This document shows positions 3,430-9,557 of a stretch of 40,876 nt of DNA, piece by piece. The position numbers were made by a program, and so were the translations under genes. Numbering within the stretch: position 1 is the first letter of the stretch; every line of letters starts with the position of its first letter. The notes under the pieces were generated by a model. The model ran no database searches. It saw only the letters and a program-made list of their open reading frames with translations, and was not told where the DNA came from. The DNA comes from a virus. The stretch lies in the UHGV virus genome UHGV-0428632, one strand, 5' to 3'.

Positions 3430-3568
3430 GACCTTTCTCCTTCTGCATCAGCTTCACTTTCTCCAACTCAGCCCGAAATCGACCAGGCTGCTTGAAGCTG
3501 GACAGGAAGCGATCACGTAGTATGTTTTTGTGCATTTTGTCCTGGTAAGGACTGAGTGGTTTTGCCAT
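3422..3568 (-). CDS. Small basic ORF (48 aa) between cII and O
   Basis: Strong RBS AGGAGtaattATG on the minus strand. Tail of the longer out-of-frame ORF 3422..3781. Could be spurious. Confidence 0.3.
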
Positions 3569-3602
3569 AATTACTCCTGTTACTTGGCGTAACACAGTGT
3601 GC

Positions 3603-3881
3603 TTAAGCGTCCAGACTGCTACCAACAGCTGGACGTTTTTCTTTTGTGAGAATCGACGCAACTTGCTGAGCAAGTCTCGCCATCTCATCATCAACAACTC
3701 CCCATTCAAGCACTGCCAGAAGCATTGAGAACTTGGGAATCCAGTCTCGCTTCCACCGGCTAATCTGCGCTTTATCGACACCTACAGCTGCTGCTGTTTT
3801 CTCTGTGCCAATCAGGGCGATCTTATTGAGCAAGGCGCTTTCAATGCGCATTGCCTCGTTGCGTTTGTTTGCGTGTTCCAT
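3603..3881 (-). CDS. cII: Transcriptional activator CII
   Basis: 92 aa, near-colinear with lambda CII (…[58 protein letters not shown]…). Confidence 0.9.
3607..3646 (+). terminator. Plus-strand intrinsic terminator overlapping the 3' end of cII (oop-RNA-like antisense terminator)
   Basis: CGTCCAG-14nt-CTGGACG followed by TTTTTCTTTTGT on the plus strand, i.e. antisense to the cII stop region. A possible -10 CATAAT lies at about 3566-3571. Confidence 0.5.
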
Positions 3882-3913
3882 GTGTGAATATATTCCTTAG
3901 TTAATAAGTAAAT

Positions 3914-3974
3914 ACGCATCTGTTGATGCGTTGGTTTCCCTGGTATTCCGAGGGAGGCTGATTATTAAAGAGCG
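3914..3974 (-). promoter_or_regulatory. nutR-like region plus tR1-like hairpin between cro and cII
   Basis: On the minus strand: boxA CGCTCTTTAATAA (plus 3961-3974), then hairpin CCCUcgGAAUACcAGGG (plus 3937-3955), then hairpin ACGCAUC-AACA-GAUGCGU followed by a U-rich tract (plus 3914-3931). Confidence 0.4.
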
Positions 3975-3981
3975 GTACTGC

Positions 3982-4197
3982 TTATGCTGCTTTTTTGCGT
4001 GGTGGGAAAAGAGAATCCAAGTTCGTCTTTCCACCAAGCTTATTCAGTGCCTTAACCAGGCTTCGGCATGACTCTAAATCTGGAGCCCGGATACCGGCCT
4101 CATAGTTGGCTAAGCGAGACTGATTCCAGCCACACGCGCAAGCCAGCGCAGATTGAGTGATGCCAAGTTTTTTCCGTTCATTGGCAATGTTGTTCAT
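3982..4197 (-). CDS. cro: Cro-like HTH repressor
   Basis: 71 aa from MNNIANERKKLGITQSALACACGWNQSRLANYE (XRE-type HTH). RBS AAGGAAAACC upstream. First gene of the PR operon, divergent from cI. Confidence 0.75.
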   Translation of the reverse strand: MNNIANERKKLGITQSALACACGWNQSRLANYEAGIRAPDLESCRSLVKALNKLGGKTNLDSLFPPRKKAA

Positions 4198-4301
4198 GGT
4201 TTTCCTTAAAAGCTGGGTCACTCAACAAACATTAAACACAATTTGTGATTATCAGTCAACACAAATCGTGTAAAGCCACACAACACGGAACGTGATATAA
4301 A
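4198..4301. promoter_or_regulatory. OR operator trio with divergent PR (minus) and PRM (plus) promoters
   Basis: Three ~14-bp near-palindromes: ACACAAtTTGTGAT (4236-4249), ACACAAATCGTGT (4258-4270), ACACGgaaCGTGAT (4279-4292). PR: TTGACT-17-TTTAAT on the minus strand. PRM -10 GATATAAA sits immediately before the cI ATG. Confidence 0.7.
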
Positions 4302-4943
4302 ATGCGCATGAAAAGAACAGAAACTATCGCCGCGCGAATAAAGAGATTGCGAGAGATAAAAGGCCTTTCTCAGAAGGCTTTAGCGGAGCTTTGCGGCTGG
4401 GCTTCACAATCTCGGATCGGAAATTATGAATCAGGCACCAGAAGCGTTAGTGTTGAAGACGCGGAAGTAATCGCAAAGGCATTAGGAGTTGCCACAGCTG
4501 AGCTGCTTTTTGGCGACGACTATCAGGGACAATACAAACCAGGGGTAAAGTTCCCGTTGATTAGCTGGGTTAGCGCAGGTGCCTGGTGCGAGGCCGTGGA
4601 ACCATATAACGCACAAACAGTCGATGAGTGGTATGAATCAGACTGCCACGTTGTTGGAGACGCATTTTGGCTAAGGGTTCAGGGTGATTCTATGACTGCG
4701 CCAACAGGCTTAAGCGTTCCAGAGGGCATGTTGGTTCTATTCGACACAGGAAAAGAGGCTGTAAATGGCAGCCTTGTAATAGCCAAACTTACCGATGCCA
4801 ACGAAGCTACATTCAAAAAATTGATAATCGATGGTGGAAACAAGTATCTCAAAGGCCTCAACCCCGCCTATCCGCTGATTCCTGTAGATGGTAATTGCAA
4901 AATCATTGGTGTAGCAGTACAGATGATGATGCGTTTCTCCTGA
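4302..4943 (+). CDS. cI: CI-type prophage repressor with C-terminal S24 (LexA-like) autocleavage domain
   Basis: 213 aa. N-terminal HTH (LSQKALAELCGWASQSRIGNYESG). C-terminal GDSM Ser motif and conserved Lys (FKKL). Divergent from cro. Confidence 0.9.
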   Translation: MRMKRTETIAARIKRLREIKGLSQKALAELCGWASQSRIGNYESGTRSVSVEDAEVIAKALGVATAELLFGDDYQGQYKPGVKFPLISWVSAGAWCEAVEPYNAQTVDEWYESDCHVVGDAFWLRVQGDSMTAPTGLSVPEGMLVLFDTGKEAVNGSLVIAKLTDANEATFKKLIIDGGNKYLKGLNPAYPLIPVDGNCKIIGVAVQMMMRFS

Positions 4944-4967
4944 TATAACATCGCGTTAAAGAATCCA

Positions 4968-4991
4968 AACCCGCTTCGGCGGGTTTTTTAT
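4968..4991 (+). terminator. Intrinsic terminator after cI
   Basis: CCCGC-ttcg-GCGGG followed by TTTTTTATT. Confidence 0.7.
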
Positions 4992-5035
4992 TGCCCGCAA
5001 AAAATAAATTCCCTTAGAAATCAATGCAAACACGG

Positions 5036-5104
5036 TTTGTGATAAATATAATCACATTTCGTGTTGACACCACAAACACAATCTGTGATTATCTAGCCAT
5101 CAGC
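5036..5104 (+). promoter_or_regulatory. OL operator trio and PL promoter
   Basis: ACACGGTTTGTGAT (5040-5053), ATCACATTTCGTGTT (5062-5076), ACACAATCTGTGAT (5087-5100), same consensus as OR. PL: TTGACA (5073-5078)-17-GATTAT (5096-5101). Confidence 0.65.
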
Positions 5105-5138
5105 AGGACGCTGAACACGAACAAGGAACTGAGTTCGG

Positions 5139-5190
5139 GCTCTTTAAAAATTCAATCCTGTGAATACACAGGCCGAAGTGAATGCTTCGG
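5139..5190 (+). promoter_or_regulatory. nutL-like site (boxA plus boxB hairpin plus second hairpin)
   Basis: boxA GCTCTTTAAAAA (5139-5150). Hairpin CCUGUG-AAUA-CACAGG (5157-5172) whose loop shares GAAUAC with the nutR candidate. Second hairpin CCGAAG-UGAAUG-CUUCGG (5173-5190). Confidence 0.45.
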
Positions 5191-5358
5191 GGTGTGGTGA
5201 AGGGTTCATGGACGGGAATATGTCGCACGTAAAGCGGCGAGGCCTGCGGAACTTATGCCGAATTGAAGTAGGCCGAAGCGGGTCGAAATGGGTCTCCCAC
5301 CTACCACACCACCAAAGCATTTATCTCGCATCAGCGGGTAACGAGAGAGGGTAAGGCG

Positions 5359-5589
5359 ATGGCAATAGATGCGACGTTAAAAGTTAAGCAAATTAACTCT
5401 ATTAACCCATACGGCGACGGATGGAATAGGTATATGGAAATCGATATCGGCAGTATCGAGTTAGTTGAATGTGTTAAGCCGGAAGAAATTATTTCTGAGT
5501 ACACGGCAGCATCACTTCTTGATGCAATGGATGAATCTGATGTGGTTCGATGGCTTGAAAACGAAGGTTACACAGTAACAAACGATTAA
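5359..5589 (+). CDS. Small acidic hypothetical protein (76 aa), first ORF of the PL operon
   Basis: RBS AGGGTAAGG. Strongly acidic composition. Preceded by a ~250-nt structured leader and followed by a terminator. Confidence 0.5.
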   Translation: MAIDATLKVKQINSINPYGDGWNRYMEIDIGSIELVECVKPEEIISEYTAASLLDAMDESDVVRWLENEGYTVTND

Positions 5590-5612
5590 CCCGCTCCGGC
5601 GGGTTTTTATCG
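5588..5612 (+). terminator. Intrinsic terminator, near-identical copy of the cI terminator
   Basis: CCCGC-tccg-GCGGG followed by TTTTTAT. A 28-bp imperfect direct repeat of 4966-4993. Confidence 0.6.
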
Positions 5613-5881
5613 GCCATGCACAGGGCGAAGTAAGTGCTTCGGGATTGGATGAACGCCTGCGCCAACAGGCTCAAGTACGGGAAATAGCTACCTGGGCAAC
5701 ACAGGCTGCCGTAGCGAAATCGAATAACCGTAAAGGTTAACGGCAAGACCCGTTTGATGCTGGTGAATTGACACCCTACCCCGATATCGGGATGTCGTGA
5801 AACTTAGGCTGGTTTGAGTCCAGTTAAGCAGGAGAAAGGCACCTGCCATCCAATCACCAAAGCATTCACTGAGGAATACCC

Positions 5882-6136
5882 ATGAACAGAAATCAACGCC
5901 GTATGGCTGCATACAACGCCATGAAAGCAACTCAGAAGTTAGAAGCTAAAGCCTACTGTAAAAAGATTGACCGTGCATTTTCACGGCTGTCTGAAGGCTG
6001 TAGTGAGCGTGTAACACGTGCCGTTTCGCATGCTGTTGTGCGTCAGAAGGAAGTTGAAGGTGGCGGAGTCTGCTTGCCAGATGTGGCGCTTTTTGCAGCT
6101 GGTCATCGTAAATCTAATAACGTAACTGCTCGCTGA
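5882..6136 (+). CDS. N: N-like transcription antitermination protein (lambda N / P22 gp24-like, by recollection)
   Basis: 84 aa. N-terminal Arg-containing motif MNRNQRRMAAYNAMKATQK (ARM-like). C-terminal …RQKEVEGGGVCLPDVALFAAGHRKSNNVTAR resembles N-family C-termini as I recall them. Second gene downstream of PL/nutL. Confidence 0.55.
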   Translation: MNRNQRRMAAYNAMKATQKLEAKAYCKKIDRAFSRLSEGCSERVTRAVSHAVVRQKEVEGGGVCLPDVALFAAGHRKSNNVTAR

Positions 6137-6166
6137 TTCTTTTGGCAGCAAGCCACAGAGGTGAAT

Positions 6167-6436
6167 ATGAAACATACGCCAGGCCCATGGTATTGGGACT
6201 CTGAAGGGTTGGGTAGCAAGGATGTATTGGTGTTCGGTAAAGGCTACCCGTTTGAAATGACCAGTGAAGCTAATAAGCGGCTGATAGCAGCAGCTCCTGA
6301 TTTGCTCGAAGCTCTGCAACTTGCTTTTGCTGATATGAGTGGAGGTATGAAATCTTGCGGACATAACGGCTACACATGCACGTGCTCGTATGAAAAGGCT
6401 AAAGCAGCCATCAGCAAGGCTCTGGGGGAGGAGTGA
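6167..6436 (+). CDS. Hypothetical protein
   Basis: RBS GAGGTG-5nt-ATG. 89 aa from MKHTPGPWYW. Confidence 0.5.
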   Translation: MKHTPGPWYWDSEGLGSKDVLVFGKGYPFEMTSEANKRLIAAAPDLLEALQLAFADMSGGMKSCGHNGYTCTCSYEKAKAAISKALGEE

Positions 6437-6438
6437 TG

Positions 6439-6561
6439 GAATTAAATAAAGAGCAAGCGGCAGAAGTTATCAAGCTTATCGAGCAAGCGTTTCTTGATGG
6501 GTTTGATGATGAGATTTTGGTTGAACTTCACGAAAAACTAACTGAGTTTGTTAGCGAATAA
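6439..6561 (+). CDS. Small hypothetical protein (40 aa), translationally coupled
   Basis: Overlap gagTGATGg with the upstream stop. RBS GGGGAGGAG. MELNKEQAAEVIKLIEQAFLDGFDDEILVELHEKLTEFVSE. Confidence 0.35.
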   Translation, partial: ELNKEQAAEVIKLIEQAFLDGFDDEILVELHEKLTEFVSE

Positions 6562-6670
6562 GCACCTAATGCGGATTCACCGATTCCGCATTGTGAGCCA
6601 ATCCGCGCTCGCATCATCTAAAGGAGACGATAGATGATGTTCTGATTAAATACCCCTTGTTGTCATCTTG

Positions 6671-6700
6671 GCCTCTTGGTGAGGCCATTTTTTTTACTGT
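6671..6700 (+). terminator. tL-like intrinsic terminator
   Basis: GGCCTC-ttggt-GAGGCC followed by ATTTTTTTT. Preceded by two strong hairpins (6572-6596 and 6626-6652). Confidence 0.7.
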
Positions 6701-6760
6701 ATATCAGTGCGCTCAACGAACGCAGCGCTATGCAATCACACACAACATAAGGAACTACCC

Positions 6761-6931
6761 ATGCAGACATTAAATCTCGCTGGGGCTATCCCGATGGGTA
6801 GCTTCGACGCAATCACGTCCATTCAACACTCACGCCGCAATATCCTGACTGGTGCAGACTTCAAGCAGCCTCGCGTTAAGAGCTTGCTGGAGCGTCTGGT
6901 TGAGTTTCTGAATCAGAAGGTGCAGCCGTGA
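6761..6931 (+). CDS. cIII: CIII-like protein (putative FtsH inhibitor)
   Basis: 56 aa from MQTLNLAG. RBS AAGGAA. The motif …SLLERLVEFLNQ… resembles the central cIII helix (lambda SLLERITRKLRDGWKRLIDILNQ). Its position after tL and before exo matches. Confidence 0.5.
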   Translation: MQTLNLAGAIPMGSFDAITSIQHSRRNILTGADFKQPRVKSLLERLVEFLNQKVQP

Positions 6932-7015
6932 CAGGTGCAGAGCAGAGATGGAGTGACGAGGAGTTATATCAGCTCCTTAAAGATGTATTTCCGGTTCCGC
7001 GTGAGGAGAATAACC

Positions 7016-7324
7016 ATGCGCCTGACGATGACAGACAAAGCAGAGATTAAGCAAATCATCGCGAGCTTTAGCGACGATGACAATGCAGCGATTGATAAGC
7101 AGGTTGAGATGCTGTGCGCGAATATGCGGCCGGTACTCAACATGCTGGAAGCGCATAAACCTGACGATTTCACGAAAGATGCGGTCGAGTGGCTTGGTGA
7201 AGAGGACTGCAACTATCAGGAATTCGCCGGAGAAGTTATGTGGGACATATTCAGGCCGCGCGTCGAAGTGGAGTATGCAATGTCCATCTTTATGCGCCGC
7301 CATGTATTCGAGGACGCAGCATGA
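7016..7324 (+). CDS. Hypothetical acidic protein upstream of the exonuclease
   Basis: RBS GAGGAG-7nt-ATG. 102 aa. ATGA overlap with exo. Confidence 0.5.
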
Positions 7325-8142
7325 AACCTGGCGTCTACTACGGAATGTCGAACGAGGCCTATCACGCTGACGAGGCTATAGGCTCAACGACAGTCAAGGC
7401 AATCAGCGTCAGTCCTGCCAATCACTTCTTCAACAAATTTACCGGAAGCAAGTCTGCGCACATTGGAAGTGCTATTCATGCGGCGCTGCTTGAGCCTGAT
7501 GTTTATCAGTTCCGGTATGCAAAGCGCGAAGAAATAACATCTAGAGCCAGCAAGGAATACAAGGAAGTCACTAAGCAGTTTCCTGCAGAGTTTATTCTGG
7601 TTGGCGGCGAGGTAGATACGGTACAGCGGATGTATGAATCGTCTCGGATGAACGATGACTTCATGGATTACATGAACACCAAGGGAAGCTCTGAAGTGTC
7701 CATGTTTGCTGAATGTCCAGAAACGGGCTTGATGCTTAAATGCCGCTTCGACAGGCTATCGGACACTCTCGCCTACCCTCTCGACGTTAAGAGTTGCAGA
7801 GACGCTTCTGAGCGCGGATTCAGCAATGCTTTCGGTCAGTACAAATACCACATTCAAGCAGCTTTCTATCTCTACGTTCTCAAACTGGCAACTGGTATCG
7901 AATATAACCAGTTTGCCTTTTTCGCTATCGAGAACTCACCGCCATATCGCAACTGCATGTACTACATCGGCGAGGAATCGCTGGAGCTTGGATATCGCGA
8001 GATGTACGCAGCTTTAGACAAGCTCGTGGCATGCAAAGCAAACGAATCACTGAAGTACGAAGGAATTGTACTTCCATCCAACGAAATTAACGTTCCGGCC
8101 TATTTGCTGGATAACGAATACGATGACGAGGTAATTCTCTAA
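7321..8142 (+). CDS. Phage exonuclease, RecE-family PD-(D/E)XK (exodeoxyribonuclease VIII-like / DUF3799-type)
   Basis: 273 aa. N-terminal [27 protein letters not shown]… signature of this family. D…PLDVKS…(E/Q)xK-like core. Confidence 0.7.
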
Positions 8143-9159: not shown

Positions 9160-9557
9160 GCGTGAATCGTTATGAATTTGAAGATTATGGCACCAATGAA
9201 CCTGATGGCCGCTACGTGACTTACGAAGACTACGCAGCACTTGATGCCAGATGCGCGGCGCTGGCTGCGGAGAATGCGGGGCTGAAAAAATCAGAGCCAG
9301 CACCATTCAGCAAGCTGATGATGGAGGCGCTTGATGTTTATCAGGCGGGCGCTGATGAAGTGCCGGAGCTGGCAATGCTGAGTGCGTATAAAAAGCTGCG
9401 AGATGGGCTAAAAACTCCGGCGACCGACGCTTTCCTGGCTGAAGTGCGGGCGCAGGGGGTGGAGATGCTGCGTAAACATCCAGCGATAAAACTTTGCTCT
9501 TTAACTCACGTATGTGATGAGTTCGCCGCCCAGCTTCGCAAAGGAGTGCAGTCATGA
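9156..9557 (+). CDS. Hypothetical protein (ea-region)
   Basis: 133 aa from MSVNRYEFEDYG. Coupled starts and stops. Confidence 0.5.
   Translation: MSVNRYEFEDYGTNEPDGRYVTYEDYAALDARCAALAAENAGLKKSEPAPFSKLMMEALDVYQAGADEVPELAMLSAYKKLRDGLKTPATDAFLAEVRAQGVEMLRKHPAIKLCSLTHVCDEFAAQLRKGVQS

Follow-up and report, generated by a model that had tools for sequence, protein, structure and literature searches.

A probable recombinational mosaic at the head of the PL operon of a P22-like phage, with a small acidic gene and a terminator ahead of N

The window (the whole 40,876-nucleotide stretch analysed here, UHGV-0428632) comes from a P22-like lambdoid phage in which N is the second gene of the PL operon and has an intrinsic-terminator-like hairpin before it, as the initial annotation had noticed. 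The head of this operon is probably a recombinational mosaic, formed by insertion of a cassette carrying a small acidic gene, ORF76, and of a leader body of the 933W/phi80 type between nutL and the N leader. The host unit before the insertion would have been the canonical series of PL, nutL, leader and N. The cassette, which is of a widespread PL-operon type, would consist of a conserved translation-initiation region, a variable gene (ORF76) and an intrinsic terminator starting at the stop codon. The operon is thus an unusual mosaic of known parts and not a new RNA device.

Layout and block structure of the PL operon

The features of the region are as follows.

3937..3974, minus strand: nutR, downstream of cro; boxA CGCUCUUUAA (3974-3965), boxB UCCCUCGG-AAUA-CCAGGGA (3955-3937)
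4302..4943, plus strand: cI-type repressor with HTH and S24 peptidase domains (Pfam Peptidase_S24 5.2e-25, HTH_3 2.3e-13)
4967..4993, plus strand: cI (immunity) terminator, CCCGC-UUCG-GCGGG then U6 (terminator scan)
5027..5092, plus strand: OL operators and PL promoter (promoter scan, operator repeats, lambda PL sequence)
5139..5147, plus strand: nutL boxA GCTCTTTAA (exact match)
5157..5172, plus strand: candidate nutL boxB hairpin CCUGUG-AAUA-CACAGG (fold)
5173..5190, plus strand: small leader hairpin 1, CCGAAG-UGAAUG-CUUCGG (fold)
5180..5199, plus strand: leader 1 long-range helix, 5′ arm (minimum-free-energy fold, covariation)
5191..5318, plus strand: leader 1 interior, 933W/phi80 type (97% to L040, 96% to 933W and E. 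coli KCJ3K291, 91% to phi80)
5302..5322, plus strand: leader 1 long-range helix, 3′ arm UACCACACCACCAAAGCAUUU (fold, covariation)
5319..5358, plus strand: translation-initiation region of the cassette, ending in CGCATCAGCGGGTAACGAGAGAGGGTAAGGCG and followed by ATG (conserved across loci)
5359..5589, plus strand: ORF76, small acidic early protein of family phrog_14049 (PHROG 2.3e-31)
5588..5610, plus strand: cassette terminator AA-CCCGC-UCCG-GCGGG-UUUUUAU (fold, -16.6 kcal/mol in context)
5616..5629, plus strand: right-hand recombination join with 14 nt of microhomology, ATRCAYAGGSMGA (window against L005 and L026)
5626..5641, plus strand: small leader hairpin 2, CGAAG-UAAGUG-CUUCG (fold)
5629..5651, plus strand: leader 2 long-range helix, 5′ arm (fold, covariation)
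5847..5870, plus strand: leader 2 long-range helix, 3′ arm CAUCCAAUCACCAAAGCAUUCACU, followed by the ribosome-binding site GAGGA (fold, covariation)
5882..6136, plus strand: N antiterminator (Pfam N_peptide PF25694 4.9e-18; phrog_271)
6669..6695, plus strand: tL1-like terminator, 3′ of N and two small ORFs and 5′ of cIII (terminator scan)

The repeats, PL, boxA, the 76-aa ORF and the N gene all lie where the initial annotation had put them. The cI terminator is found 26 nt downstream of the cI stop codon, and an identical terminator follows cI in ten other loci (L003, L028-L031, L034, L035, L038, L040, L047). PL reads TTGACA-17-GATTAT at 5064-5092 (-35 at 5064-5069, -10 at 5087-5092; promoter scan), with a predicted transcript start near 5099, ATCAGCAGG, the same as in lambda. 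Outside nutL, boxA recurs exactly in nutR (3965-3973, minus strand) and at 9496-9504, and nowhere else.

As expected of a lambdoid N/nut system, nutL lies just 3′ of PL and a matching nutR lies 3′ of cro; the two boxB hairpins have a common G-AAUA-C apex. Wherever N shares the N-terminal arginine-rich motif of the window (L024-L027, L049, L050), an identical boxB precedes it, and boxB and this motif vary together in L028 and L029. N carries the arginine-rich motif at its N terminus and a conserved C-terminal region, and its gene is 90% identical in nucleotides to that of L024-L026. Further downstream, cIII (6761-6931) matches phrog_550 at 1.5e-10. No sigma-70-like promoter was detected between ORF76 and N (5590-5880); the promoter scan covers sigma-70 consensus sites only, and a weak N promoter may lie inside leader 2.

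The mosaic is evident from the nearest relatives of successive blocks. The nutL block (5099-5190) is 99% identical to L024 and L027, phages of the same N type, while the leader 1 interior (5191-5318) is 96-97% identical to L040, 933W and L003. The ORF76 cassette (5319-5615) is 96-97% identical to L009, L014, L015 and 14 more ORF76 loci, Enterobacter prophages. Leader 2 (5628-5871) is 93% identical to L070, where it is an ordinary N leader, and the final 27 nt 5′ of the N start codon are identical to L024-L027. In canonical relatives that share this N and nutL there is just one leader and no ORF76. These differing affinities bear out the earlier suggestion that an insertion put a structured leader and an acidic ORF upstream of N.

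At the right-hand join, the cassette flank shares its microhomology with the 3′ half of boxB. The junction pattern is absent from the viral and metagenome contigs searched, so that the arrangement is so far unique to the window, and no E. coli complete genome contains more than 32% of the region. The junction may formally also stem from an assembly chimera.

ORF76 and the terminator before N

ORF76 is a 76-aa protein with a pI of 4.05 and a net charge of about -11 (D+E 16 against K+R 5). It is conserved as a gene: the cassette is present in 17 other loci, homologues of the protein are 82-97% identical, and the remote family comprises proteins of 70-80 aa. The translation-initiation region precedes ORF76 in these 17 loci, N in phi80, and unrelated ORFs in L073, L074 and L080.

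Nothing supports a DNA-mimic role of the Ocr/ArdA type, which the initial annotation had raised. Pfam contains no family matching ORF76 at E<=1, and none matching 21 family members at E<=0.1; PADLOC gave no match and neither did PDB sequences. Foldseek against PDB and BFVD returned no hit at E<=0.001, a search that is uninformative because the AlphaFold2 model (21 sequences) is of low confidence, with a pLDDT of 69 and a pTM of 0.34. The acidity of ORF76 and its promoter-proximal place are features not specific to DNA mimics.

Other candidate relationships were discarded. The shared initiation region raised the possibility of a phi80-N-like antiterminator; ORF76 has no similarity to phi80 N and is acidic, not basic. 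A HMMER match of the family to P0018, a 1279-aa eukaryotic sushi-repeat protein, is spurious, as is the sole match in a scan of genome contigs, which spans 13 residues. Searches of the INPHARED phage collection gave no matches for ORF76 (tblastn) or leader 2 (blastn), and the exact ORF76 and N protein sequences were not found in database records.

The stem of the cassette terminator begins at the ORF76 stop codon and comprises five G-C and two A-U pairs. The terminator is present at all ORF76 loci, there with a U6 run, and is kept with its flank in every cassette; here the U-run has five bases. Stem and U-run are strictly conserved across more than 25 loci. The terminator scan missed 5588-5610 on the plus strand, as the T-run there lacks one base that the relatives have. 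Where a terminator lies within a few bp of a stop codon, the translating ribosome represses it almost completely, and a spacing above 30 bp is needed for full efficiency (PMC4824070). The ORF76 stop codon touches the stem, and the 5588-5610 terminator is therefore probably leaky; its shortened U-run points the same way.

A leaky terminator setting the N dose, one of the roles first proposed, survives as the best functional reading, with terminator strength, readthrough and RNase III cleavage all predicted from the sequence. ORF76 would then be the promoter-proximal, immediate-early product, made without N, and N mRNA would come solely from transcripts that pass 5588-5610. Ribosomes completing ORF76 would occlude the terminator's 5′ arm and so weaken termination during ORF76 translation. 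N loading at nutL would suppress the same terminator, creating a transcriptional positive feedback on N, and an RNase III cut in leader 2 would part the N ribosome-binding site from the upstream RNA.

It is unlikely that the hairpin after ORF76 has no regulatory role, causing little or no termination and mainly protecting mRNA 3′ ends while ORF76 and N are co-transcribed. Such an element would suit a stem touched by the stop codon, where ribosomes repress termination (PMC4824070), a U-run of just five bases and the lack of a plus-strand call; the strict conservation of the -16.6 kcal/mol stem and the U-run across more than 25 loci argues against it, as does the fact that the same sequence type works as the cI terminator.

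A further-reaching version of the leaky terminator, in which the stop-abutting hairpin is a translation- and N-gated checkpoint and ORF76 (phrog_14049) a new immediate-early effector, is doubtful. N may then be transcribed only during ORF76 translation or once N is present, and the effector may serve in anti-defence or act on host transcription.

At 11 of the 17 ORF76 loci no recognisable N is found within 3 kb, and there must therefore be other means of passing the terminator there. In these N-less Enterobacter prophages the N leader has been kept and ORF76 takes the place of N behind it; as an effector of the kind just described, ORF76 might even be required for transcription past the terminator that follows it.

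The timing and dose of N set the speed of lambdoid commitment to delayed-early expression. A terminator-bounded gene between nutL and N would convert N from a constitutive immediate-early product into a readthrough-dependent one, with N itself raising readthrough, and this could sharpen or delay the early switch. The small acidic family phrog_14049 is repeatedly the most promoter-proximal gene, which makes it a reasonable candidate for functional screening.

Repeats, leaders and the long-range helix

The repeats that first drew attention to the region exceed chance. The terminator repeat AACCCGCTTCGGCGGGTTTTT (4968-4988 against 5588-5608) is identical at 20 of 21 bases, its flanks GGTTTTTTATTGCCC and GGGTTTTTATCGGCC are 80% identical, and the hairpin motif ATACACAGGCCGAAGTGAATGCTTCGGGGTGTGGTGAA (5164-5201 against 5616-5653) agrees at 30 of 38 positions; CACCAAAGCATT occurs in two exact copies (5310-5321 and 5855-5866). 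In first-order Markov shuffles of 4900-6200 (n=200) the best 38-mer reached at most 27/38 and the best 21-mer at most 18/21. The CACAGG that opens the hairpin motif belongs to nutL, being the 3′ arm of its boxB hairpin (5157-5172), and the second copy retains only this 3′ half of boxB. No boxA is found in 5590-5880 and no complete boxB upstream of hairpin 2; only the first of the two leader copies has a nut site.

Folding and covariance analysis of both leaders, as the initial annotation had proposed, recovered a long-range helix in each. The stem that it had described in leader 1 exists, with CCACACC at 5304-5310 instead of 5297-5303, and is longer than was stated: the folds give about 20 bp and take in the 3′ arm of the small hairpin. 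In both leaders the helix is the minimum-free-energy fold (z-scores -2.25 and -2.84) and closes the leader at about 20 bp, ending in CCAAAGC just 5′ of the ribosome-binding site. The covariation comparison took in 45 distinct lambdoid leaders, with segments chosen by best duplex energy between two short anchor motifs, a choice that favours pairing somewhat. In this set the helix is paired in 88.9% of cells against 35-47% for slid partners; 15 of 22 helix pairs show compensatory double changes, and the covariation score is 0.50 against 0.06-0.13.

The same anatomy is directly visible in lambda, 933W, phi80, KCJ3K291 and HL15. Hairpin 1 has counterparts in 933W (CCAAAG-UGAA-CUUUGG) and in lambda (CAAAGC-AGAA-GGCUUUG). 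Leader 1 is homologous to the characterised N leaders of 933W and phi80 and leader 2 to the N leader of L070, and the arm motifs are common to lambda. On these grounds, leaders 1 and 2 each represent a copy of the ordinary lambda-type N leader. In lambda, about 200 nt of RNA, highly structured, separate nutL from the N gene downstream, and N together with Nus factors holds back its own translation (PMC5725501). Synthesis of lambda N is activated by RNase III (Kameyama 1991, as cited in PMC9032294); according to secondary sources the lambda leader helix is the RNase III target that tunes N translation, a role known for lambda only (PMC5725501, PMC9032294).

The similarity of the repeats could also reflect an in-situ tandem duplication of cI terminator, OL, PL, nutL and leader, with OL, PL and boxA then lost from the second copy and ORF76 captured in between, much as the initial annotation had envisaged for the terminator and hairpin module. 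This course of events is quite improbable. The close match of the two terminators and their similar flanks and that of the hairpin motif speak for it, L035 has a cI-like terminator fused straight to the 3′ part of a nut region, and the cassette terminators of L053 and L055 have the ATTGCCT flank of the L028 cI terminator, which suggests a relationship at some depth between the two classes of terminator. Against it, the second terminator and its flank ATCGGCCATAC belong to the cassette in 17 other loci, with another or no adjacent immunity region, and the cI terminator is seen in other phages alongside several types of cI immunity region. Between the two leader interiors (5200-5300 and 5655-5845) there is no similarity, and their nearest relatives differ; the second hairpin copy is identical to the single copy of L026 and does not derive from the first.

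That the leaders form a put-like processive antitermination RNA or another new riboregulator, by which polymerase passes the terminator without N, is very unlikely: both leaders are long, conserved and structured, and N-less Enterobacter prophages keep the same leader before ORF76 and its terminator and must therefore have some N-independent way past it, but in lambda, 933W and phi80, whose antitermination needs N, this leader stands before N itself, the phage carries a complete N/nutL/nutR set, the conserved element is a single long dsRNA helix closing the leader, which suits an RNase III substrate and not a pair of promoter-proximal stem-loops, leader 2 comes 3′ of the terminator and is unable to act on it, and the Rfam check gave only weak, terminator-driven matches (Trp_leader, rsmX, isrK and RyhB at E<=10 over 3500-7500, far under gathering scores).

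The comparison has wider implications. Covariation shows that the lambda N-leader helix has been conserved among widely differing lambdoid phages, and it persists before a non-N gene in prophages without a recognisable N nearby. Its conserved arms, together with the terminator flanks, would act as recombination joints for early-gene exchange.

Comparison with known systems

The order of elements is the same as in lambda: boxA, boxB, small hairpin, long-range helix, ribosome-binding site and gene. The lambda helix pairs GGGGUGUG... with ...CACACCACCAAAGC as here, and lambda also shares the PL transcript start, the N-terminal arginine-rich motif in N and a matching nutR after cro. In contrast to lambda, the gene driven by leader 1 is ORF76 rather than N, nutL and N are separated by a terminator and a second, nut-less leader, and the distance from nutL to the N start codon is about 740 nt instead of about 200 nt. 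The N leaders of 933W/H-19B and phi80 resemble the leader 1 interior (96% for 933W, 91% for phi80), and the initiation region before N in phi80 is the one before ORF76 here; in these phages, unlike in the window, N follows the leader directly.

The Enterobacter cassettes (L005, L008-L023) are 96-97% identical in initiation region, ORF76, stop-abutting terminator and ATCGGCCAT flank. In 11 of the 17, ORF76 follows an N-type leader and there is no recognisable N in the vicinity; L019 and L022 do carry N, situated 5′ of ORF76. The window alone has N downstream of the cassette behind a second leader. Two IMG/VR contigs, L035 and L037, have a comparable series of PL, nutL, leader, gene(s), CCCGCUUCGGCGGG-type terminator, partial nut, hairpin, leader and N. 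They differ in that the first gene is N (933W type), followed by an 83-aa ORF, and that the second module keeps boxB and lacks boxA.

The put RNA of HK022, a phage that has no functional N, consists of two promoter-proximal stem-loops acting on RNA polymerase independently of N, whereas the window has a single long-range helix, encodes N with its cognate nut sites and has no Rfam match. ORF76 is closest in kind to lambdoid morons, small accessory ORFs that end in an intrinsic terminator and are variably present at conserved module junctions: it has its own terminator, and its cassette occurs in 17 loci and is missing from phages of the same N type. Unlike morons, it has no sigma-70-like site upstream besides PL, and it would be expressed from PL through a borrowed N leader.

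The PL head and its repeated elements

The window is a P22-like temperate podovirus whose structural genes are ~76% identical to those of the Salmonella phages g341c and ST64T. All elements listed in the initial annotation are found in it, and the early-left genes and signals are arranged as follows.

Features of the immunity region and PL operon head
3955-3937 (-), nutR boxB hairpin, after boxA
3965-3973 (-), nutR boxA, exact GCTCTTTAA, downstream of cro
3982-4221 (-), cro, immunity region
4302-4943 (+), cI-type repressor, HTH plus S24 peptidase
4967-4993, cI terminator, 3′ of cI
5064-5092, PL, TTGACA-17-GATTAT, with three operator repeats
5139-5147, nutL boxA, exact GCTCTTTAA, downstream of PL
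5157-5172, nutL boxB hairpin CCUGUG-AAUA-CACAGG, after boxA
5359-5589, ORF76, the strongly acidic 76-aa ORF (pI 4.05)
5882-6136, N antiterminator (PF25694 match at 4.9e-18)
within 6161-6561, 91-aa ORF (phrog_1273), between N and a tL1-like terminator
within 6161-6561, very acidic 42-aa ORF (pI 4.17, phrog_11224), between N and the same terminator

Transcription from PL is expected to begin near 5099 with ATCAGCAGG, as it does in lambda. The hairpins behind both boxA copies share a G-AAUA-C apex. Phages that share the arginine-rich motif at the N terminus of N (MNRNQRRMAAYNAMK) have an identical nutL; in two comparison loci (L028, L029) N carries a variant of this motif and boxB is different (CCUCAGAAUCUGAGG). 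A further exact boxA-like match (TGCTCTTTAAC), the third, stands at 9495-9505 (+), ~4.4 kb along the PL operon; the weak hairpin behind it is unlike boxB, and the match may be due to chance.

The repeated terminator matches at 20 of 21 bases (4968-4988 versus 5588-5608) and the 38-nt hairpin motif at 30 of 38 (copy 1, 5164-5201; copy 2, 5616-5653), values never reached in 200 Markov shuffles of the region (best 18/21 and 27/38). The same end motif, CACCAAAGCATT, closes both leaders exactly (5310-5321 and 5855-5866). The proposed long-range stem is present with CCACACC at 5304-5310 rather than 5297-5303, the sole coordinate corrected. The 38-nt motif opens with CACAGG, the 3′ arm of boxB. Only this half of boxB, and no boxA, remains in copy 2, which is not a nut site.

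Anatomy of the two leaders

Structured RNA precedes both ORF76 (leader 1) and N (leader 2). When the equivalent region is compared in lambda, 933W, phi80 and two E. coli prophages, these and the window share one anatomy 3′ of boxB. A small hairpin comes first (lambda CAAAGC-AGAA-GGCUUUG; 933W CCAAAG-UGAA-CUUUGG; window CCGAAG-UGAAUG-CUUCGG), and a G-rich run then pairs with a C-rich run across an interior that varies from 60 to 220 nt; the C-rich run terminates in ACCAAAGC, immediately 5′ of the ribosome-binding site. The minimum-free-energy structures of both window leaders use this helix, which there reaches ~20 bp and absorbs the 3′ arm of the small hairpin; the folding z-scores are -2.25 and -2.84. 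In 45 distinct leaders from N-linked IMG/VR loci, ORF76-linked loci and reference phages, the helix is 88.9% paired versus 35-47% with partners slid 1-3 columns, both-sided changes occur in 15 of 22 pairs, and the covariation score is 0.50 versus 0.06-0.13; because the arms were picked as the duplex of best energy lying between two short anchor motifs, these values are biased somewhat towards pairing.

The structured leaders are the known lambda N leader. As summarized in one paper (PMC5725501, citing Wilson 1997 and 2002), lambda nutL lies ~200 nt upstream of N, with highly structured RNA between. The same summary has N translation repressed by N and Nus factors bound at nutL, with RNase III modulating the repression (also Kameyama 1991, as cited in PMC9032294). 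The suggestion of a new cis-acting or processive antitermination RNA is rejected because both leaders correspond to this known element and no Rfam family matches either.

The ORF76 cassette and its mosaic setting

ORF76 is a real, conserved gene, with homologues at 82-97% identity in Enterobacter. Longer database versions are over-extended starts reaching into non-conserved leader sequence. Exhaustive HMMER searching adds some 30 remote members, 70-80 aa in length, that share a conserved motif at the C-terminal end, EY..LLD.IGE.DVI.WLE..GYTV; those with readable context lie in lambdoid prophage early-left operons or other phage early regions. In some family proteins of ~100 aa (P0023, P0027, P0036, P0039) the C-terminal EY..LLD..G...VI.WLE..GY motif is duplicated internally. 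The family is phrog_14049, annotated without function, and ORF76 has no Pfam, PADLOC or PDB-sequence match. Its AlphaFold2 model (a beta-hairpin and three helices) is of low confidence (pLDDT 69, pTM 0.34), and fold searches with it return nothing significant. The idea of a DNA mimic drew on acidity and position only; nothing supports it.

ORF76 travels with its flanks as a cassette (5319-5615), found in 17 further loci, each an Enterobacter prophage or an IMG/VR contig.

Parts of the cassette
5′ of ORF76, translation-initiation region, ..CGCATCAGCGGGTAACGACAGAGGGTAAGGCG then ATG
directly after the ORF76 stop codon, terminator, CCCGCTCCGGCGGGTTTTTT
3′ of the terminator, right flank, ATCGG(C/G)CATAC..

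The cassette site is a generic exchangeable slot of PL operons, since other loci carry unrelated small ORFs between this initiation region and a terminator of the same type (L053 3636-3935, L055, L056, L073, L074, L080), there downstream of N and upstream of cIII. In these loci and the window the conserved initiation region CGGGTAACGACAGAGGGTAAGGCGATG is followed by a variable small ORF, whose stop codon sits 0-1 nt before the terminator CCCGCTNCGGCGGGTTTTT; CATACCTCAG and a hairpin with covarying arms complete the slot. The stop-codon contact suggests that slot terminators are translation-sensitive. In the window (6696-6760) and L073, L074 and L080, a hairpin and ..TATGCAATCACAC.. after a tL1-type terminator form a conserved cIII leader, which the right flank of the ORF76 cassette resembles in other loci.

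The nearest relative differs from block to block.

Nearest relatives of successive blocks
5099-5190, nutL plus hairpin, 99% to L024 and L027
5191-5318, leader 1 interior, 96-97% to L040, 933W and E. coli KCJ3K291; 91% to phi80
5319-5615, ORF76 cassette, 96-97% to ORF76 loci
5628-5871, leader 2, 93% to L070, there the ordinary single N leader
5882-6136, N, 90% to L024-L026

In relatives sharing this N, PL, nutL, hairpin, leader and N follow one another canonically and ORF76 is absent; the single hairpin and stem of L026 (CCGAAGTAAGTGCTTCGGGATTGGATGAA) equal window copy 2 except for the first base. The right-hand join falls within a 14-nt microhomology (cassette flank CCATACATAGGCAGA, boxB 3′ half GAATACACAGGCCGA, window CCATGCACAGGGCGA) and the left-hand joins in conserved helix arms. 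Of the insertion or duplication originally envisaged, the insertion stands. Local duplication is rejected because the leader interiors have no mutual similarity and both terminators belong to one widespread type: at least 10 other loci, with differing types of cI immunity region, carry the cI terminator. An ATTGCCT flank is common to some cassette copies and cI terminators.

Predicted readthrough to N and comparison with known heads

No promoter-like site was seen in a sigma-70 scan between 5590 and 5880, so N would be transcribed from PL through 5588-5610. The cassette terminator hairpin is G+C-rich, strictly conserved and stable (-16.6 kcal/mol in context). Its stem starts at the ORF76 stop (TAA 5587-5589, CCCGC 5590-5594), in contrast to the cI stop codon, 26 nt from its terminator stem, and the window U-run is one base shorter than that of relatives; both features should weaken termination. 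In E. coli, placing the terminator tR2 a few bp from a translated stop codon represses it almost completely, and more than 30 bp of separation is needed for the full efficiency of ~0.9 (PMC4824070). Given this precedent and the stop-adjacent, shortened terminator, ORF76 would be made from every PL transcript, and a fraction of ribosome-coupled polymerases would pass the terminator and allow N to be made. N could then load at nutL, ~440 nt upstream, and suppress the terminator. The leaky terminator ahead of N, as first proposed, is plausible. Leader 2 as an element acting on this terminator is rejected, as it lies downstream of it. RNase III processing of the leader 2 helix beside the N ribosome-binding site would still be possible, and nutL-tethered translational repression, if operating here, would hit ORF76 rather than N.

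In 11 of the 17 cassette loci ORF76 lies directly behind an N-type leader with no recognizable N within 3 kb, so there the terminator must be passable without N; these loci also show that the leader works with a first gene other than N. Enterobacter prophages with ORF76 in N's place (L005 3690-4400, L008-L015, L020, L023) retain a phi80-like nutL region and the covarying N-type leader, again with no recognizable N within 3 kb.

The exact junction was not found in IMG/VR or the JGI metagenome collection, the exact ORF76 and N proteins have no record, and the arrangement is missing from E. coli genomes and deposited phages alike; the window is the only case found with the ORF76 cassette ahead of N. 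Insertions between the N leader and N recur in other loci, as ORFs of 66, 50 and 39 aa (L047 2733-2933, L048 2755-2907, L059 2792-2911), a 10-aa ORF (L033, around 2820) and HNH-type ORFs (L044, L063, L069). This interval looks like an insertion hot spot, and the window adds a new form to a class of mosaic that recurs. Two loci, L035 (680-1890) and L037, have tandem N genes within one PL operon, an arrangement that no complete E. coli genome shows: a 933W-type N, an 83-aa ORF, a terminator (AACCCGCTTCGGCGGGTTTTTTATTGTCC, of the CCCGCTTCGGCGGG type), boxB without boxA, a hairpin, a leader and an HL15-type N. Their second leader keeps boxB, whereas window copy 2 has its 3′ half only.

What the window carries is the familiar lambdoid PL/N regulatory head in a new form. 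In lambda nutL lies close to N; here it lies farther upstream, ahead of a terminator whose suppression by N would constitute a positive feedback without counterpart in canonical phages.
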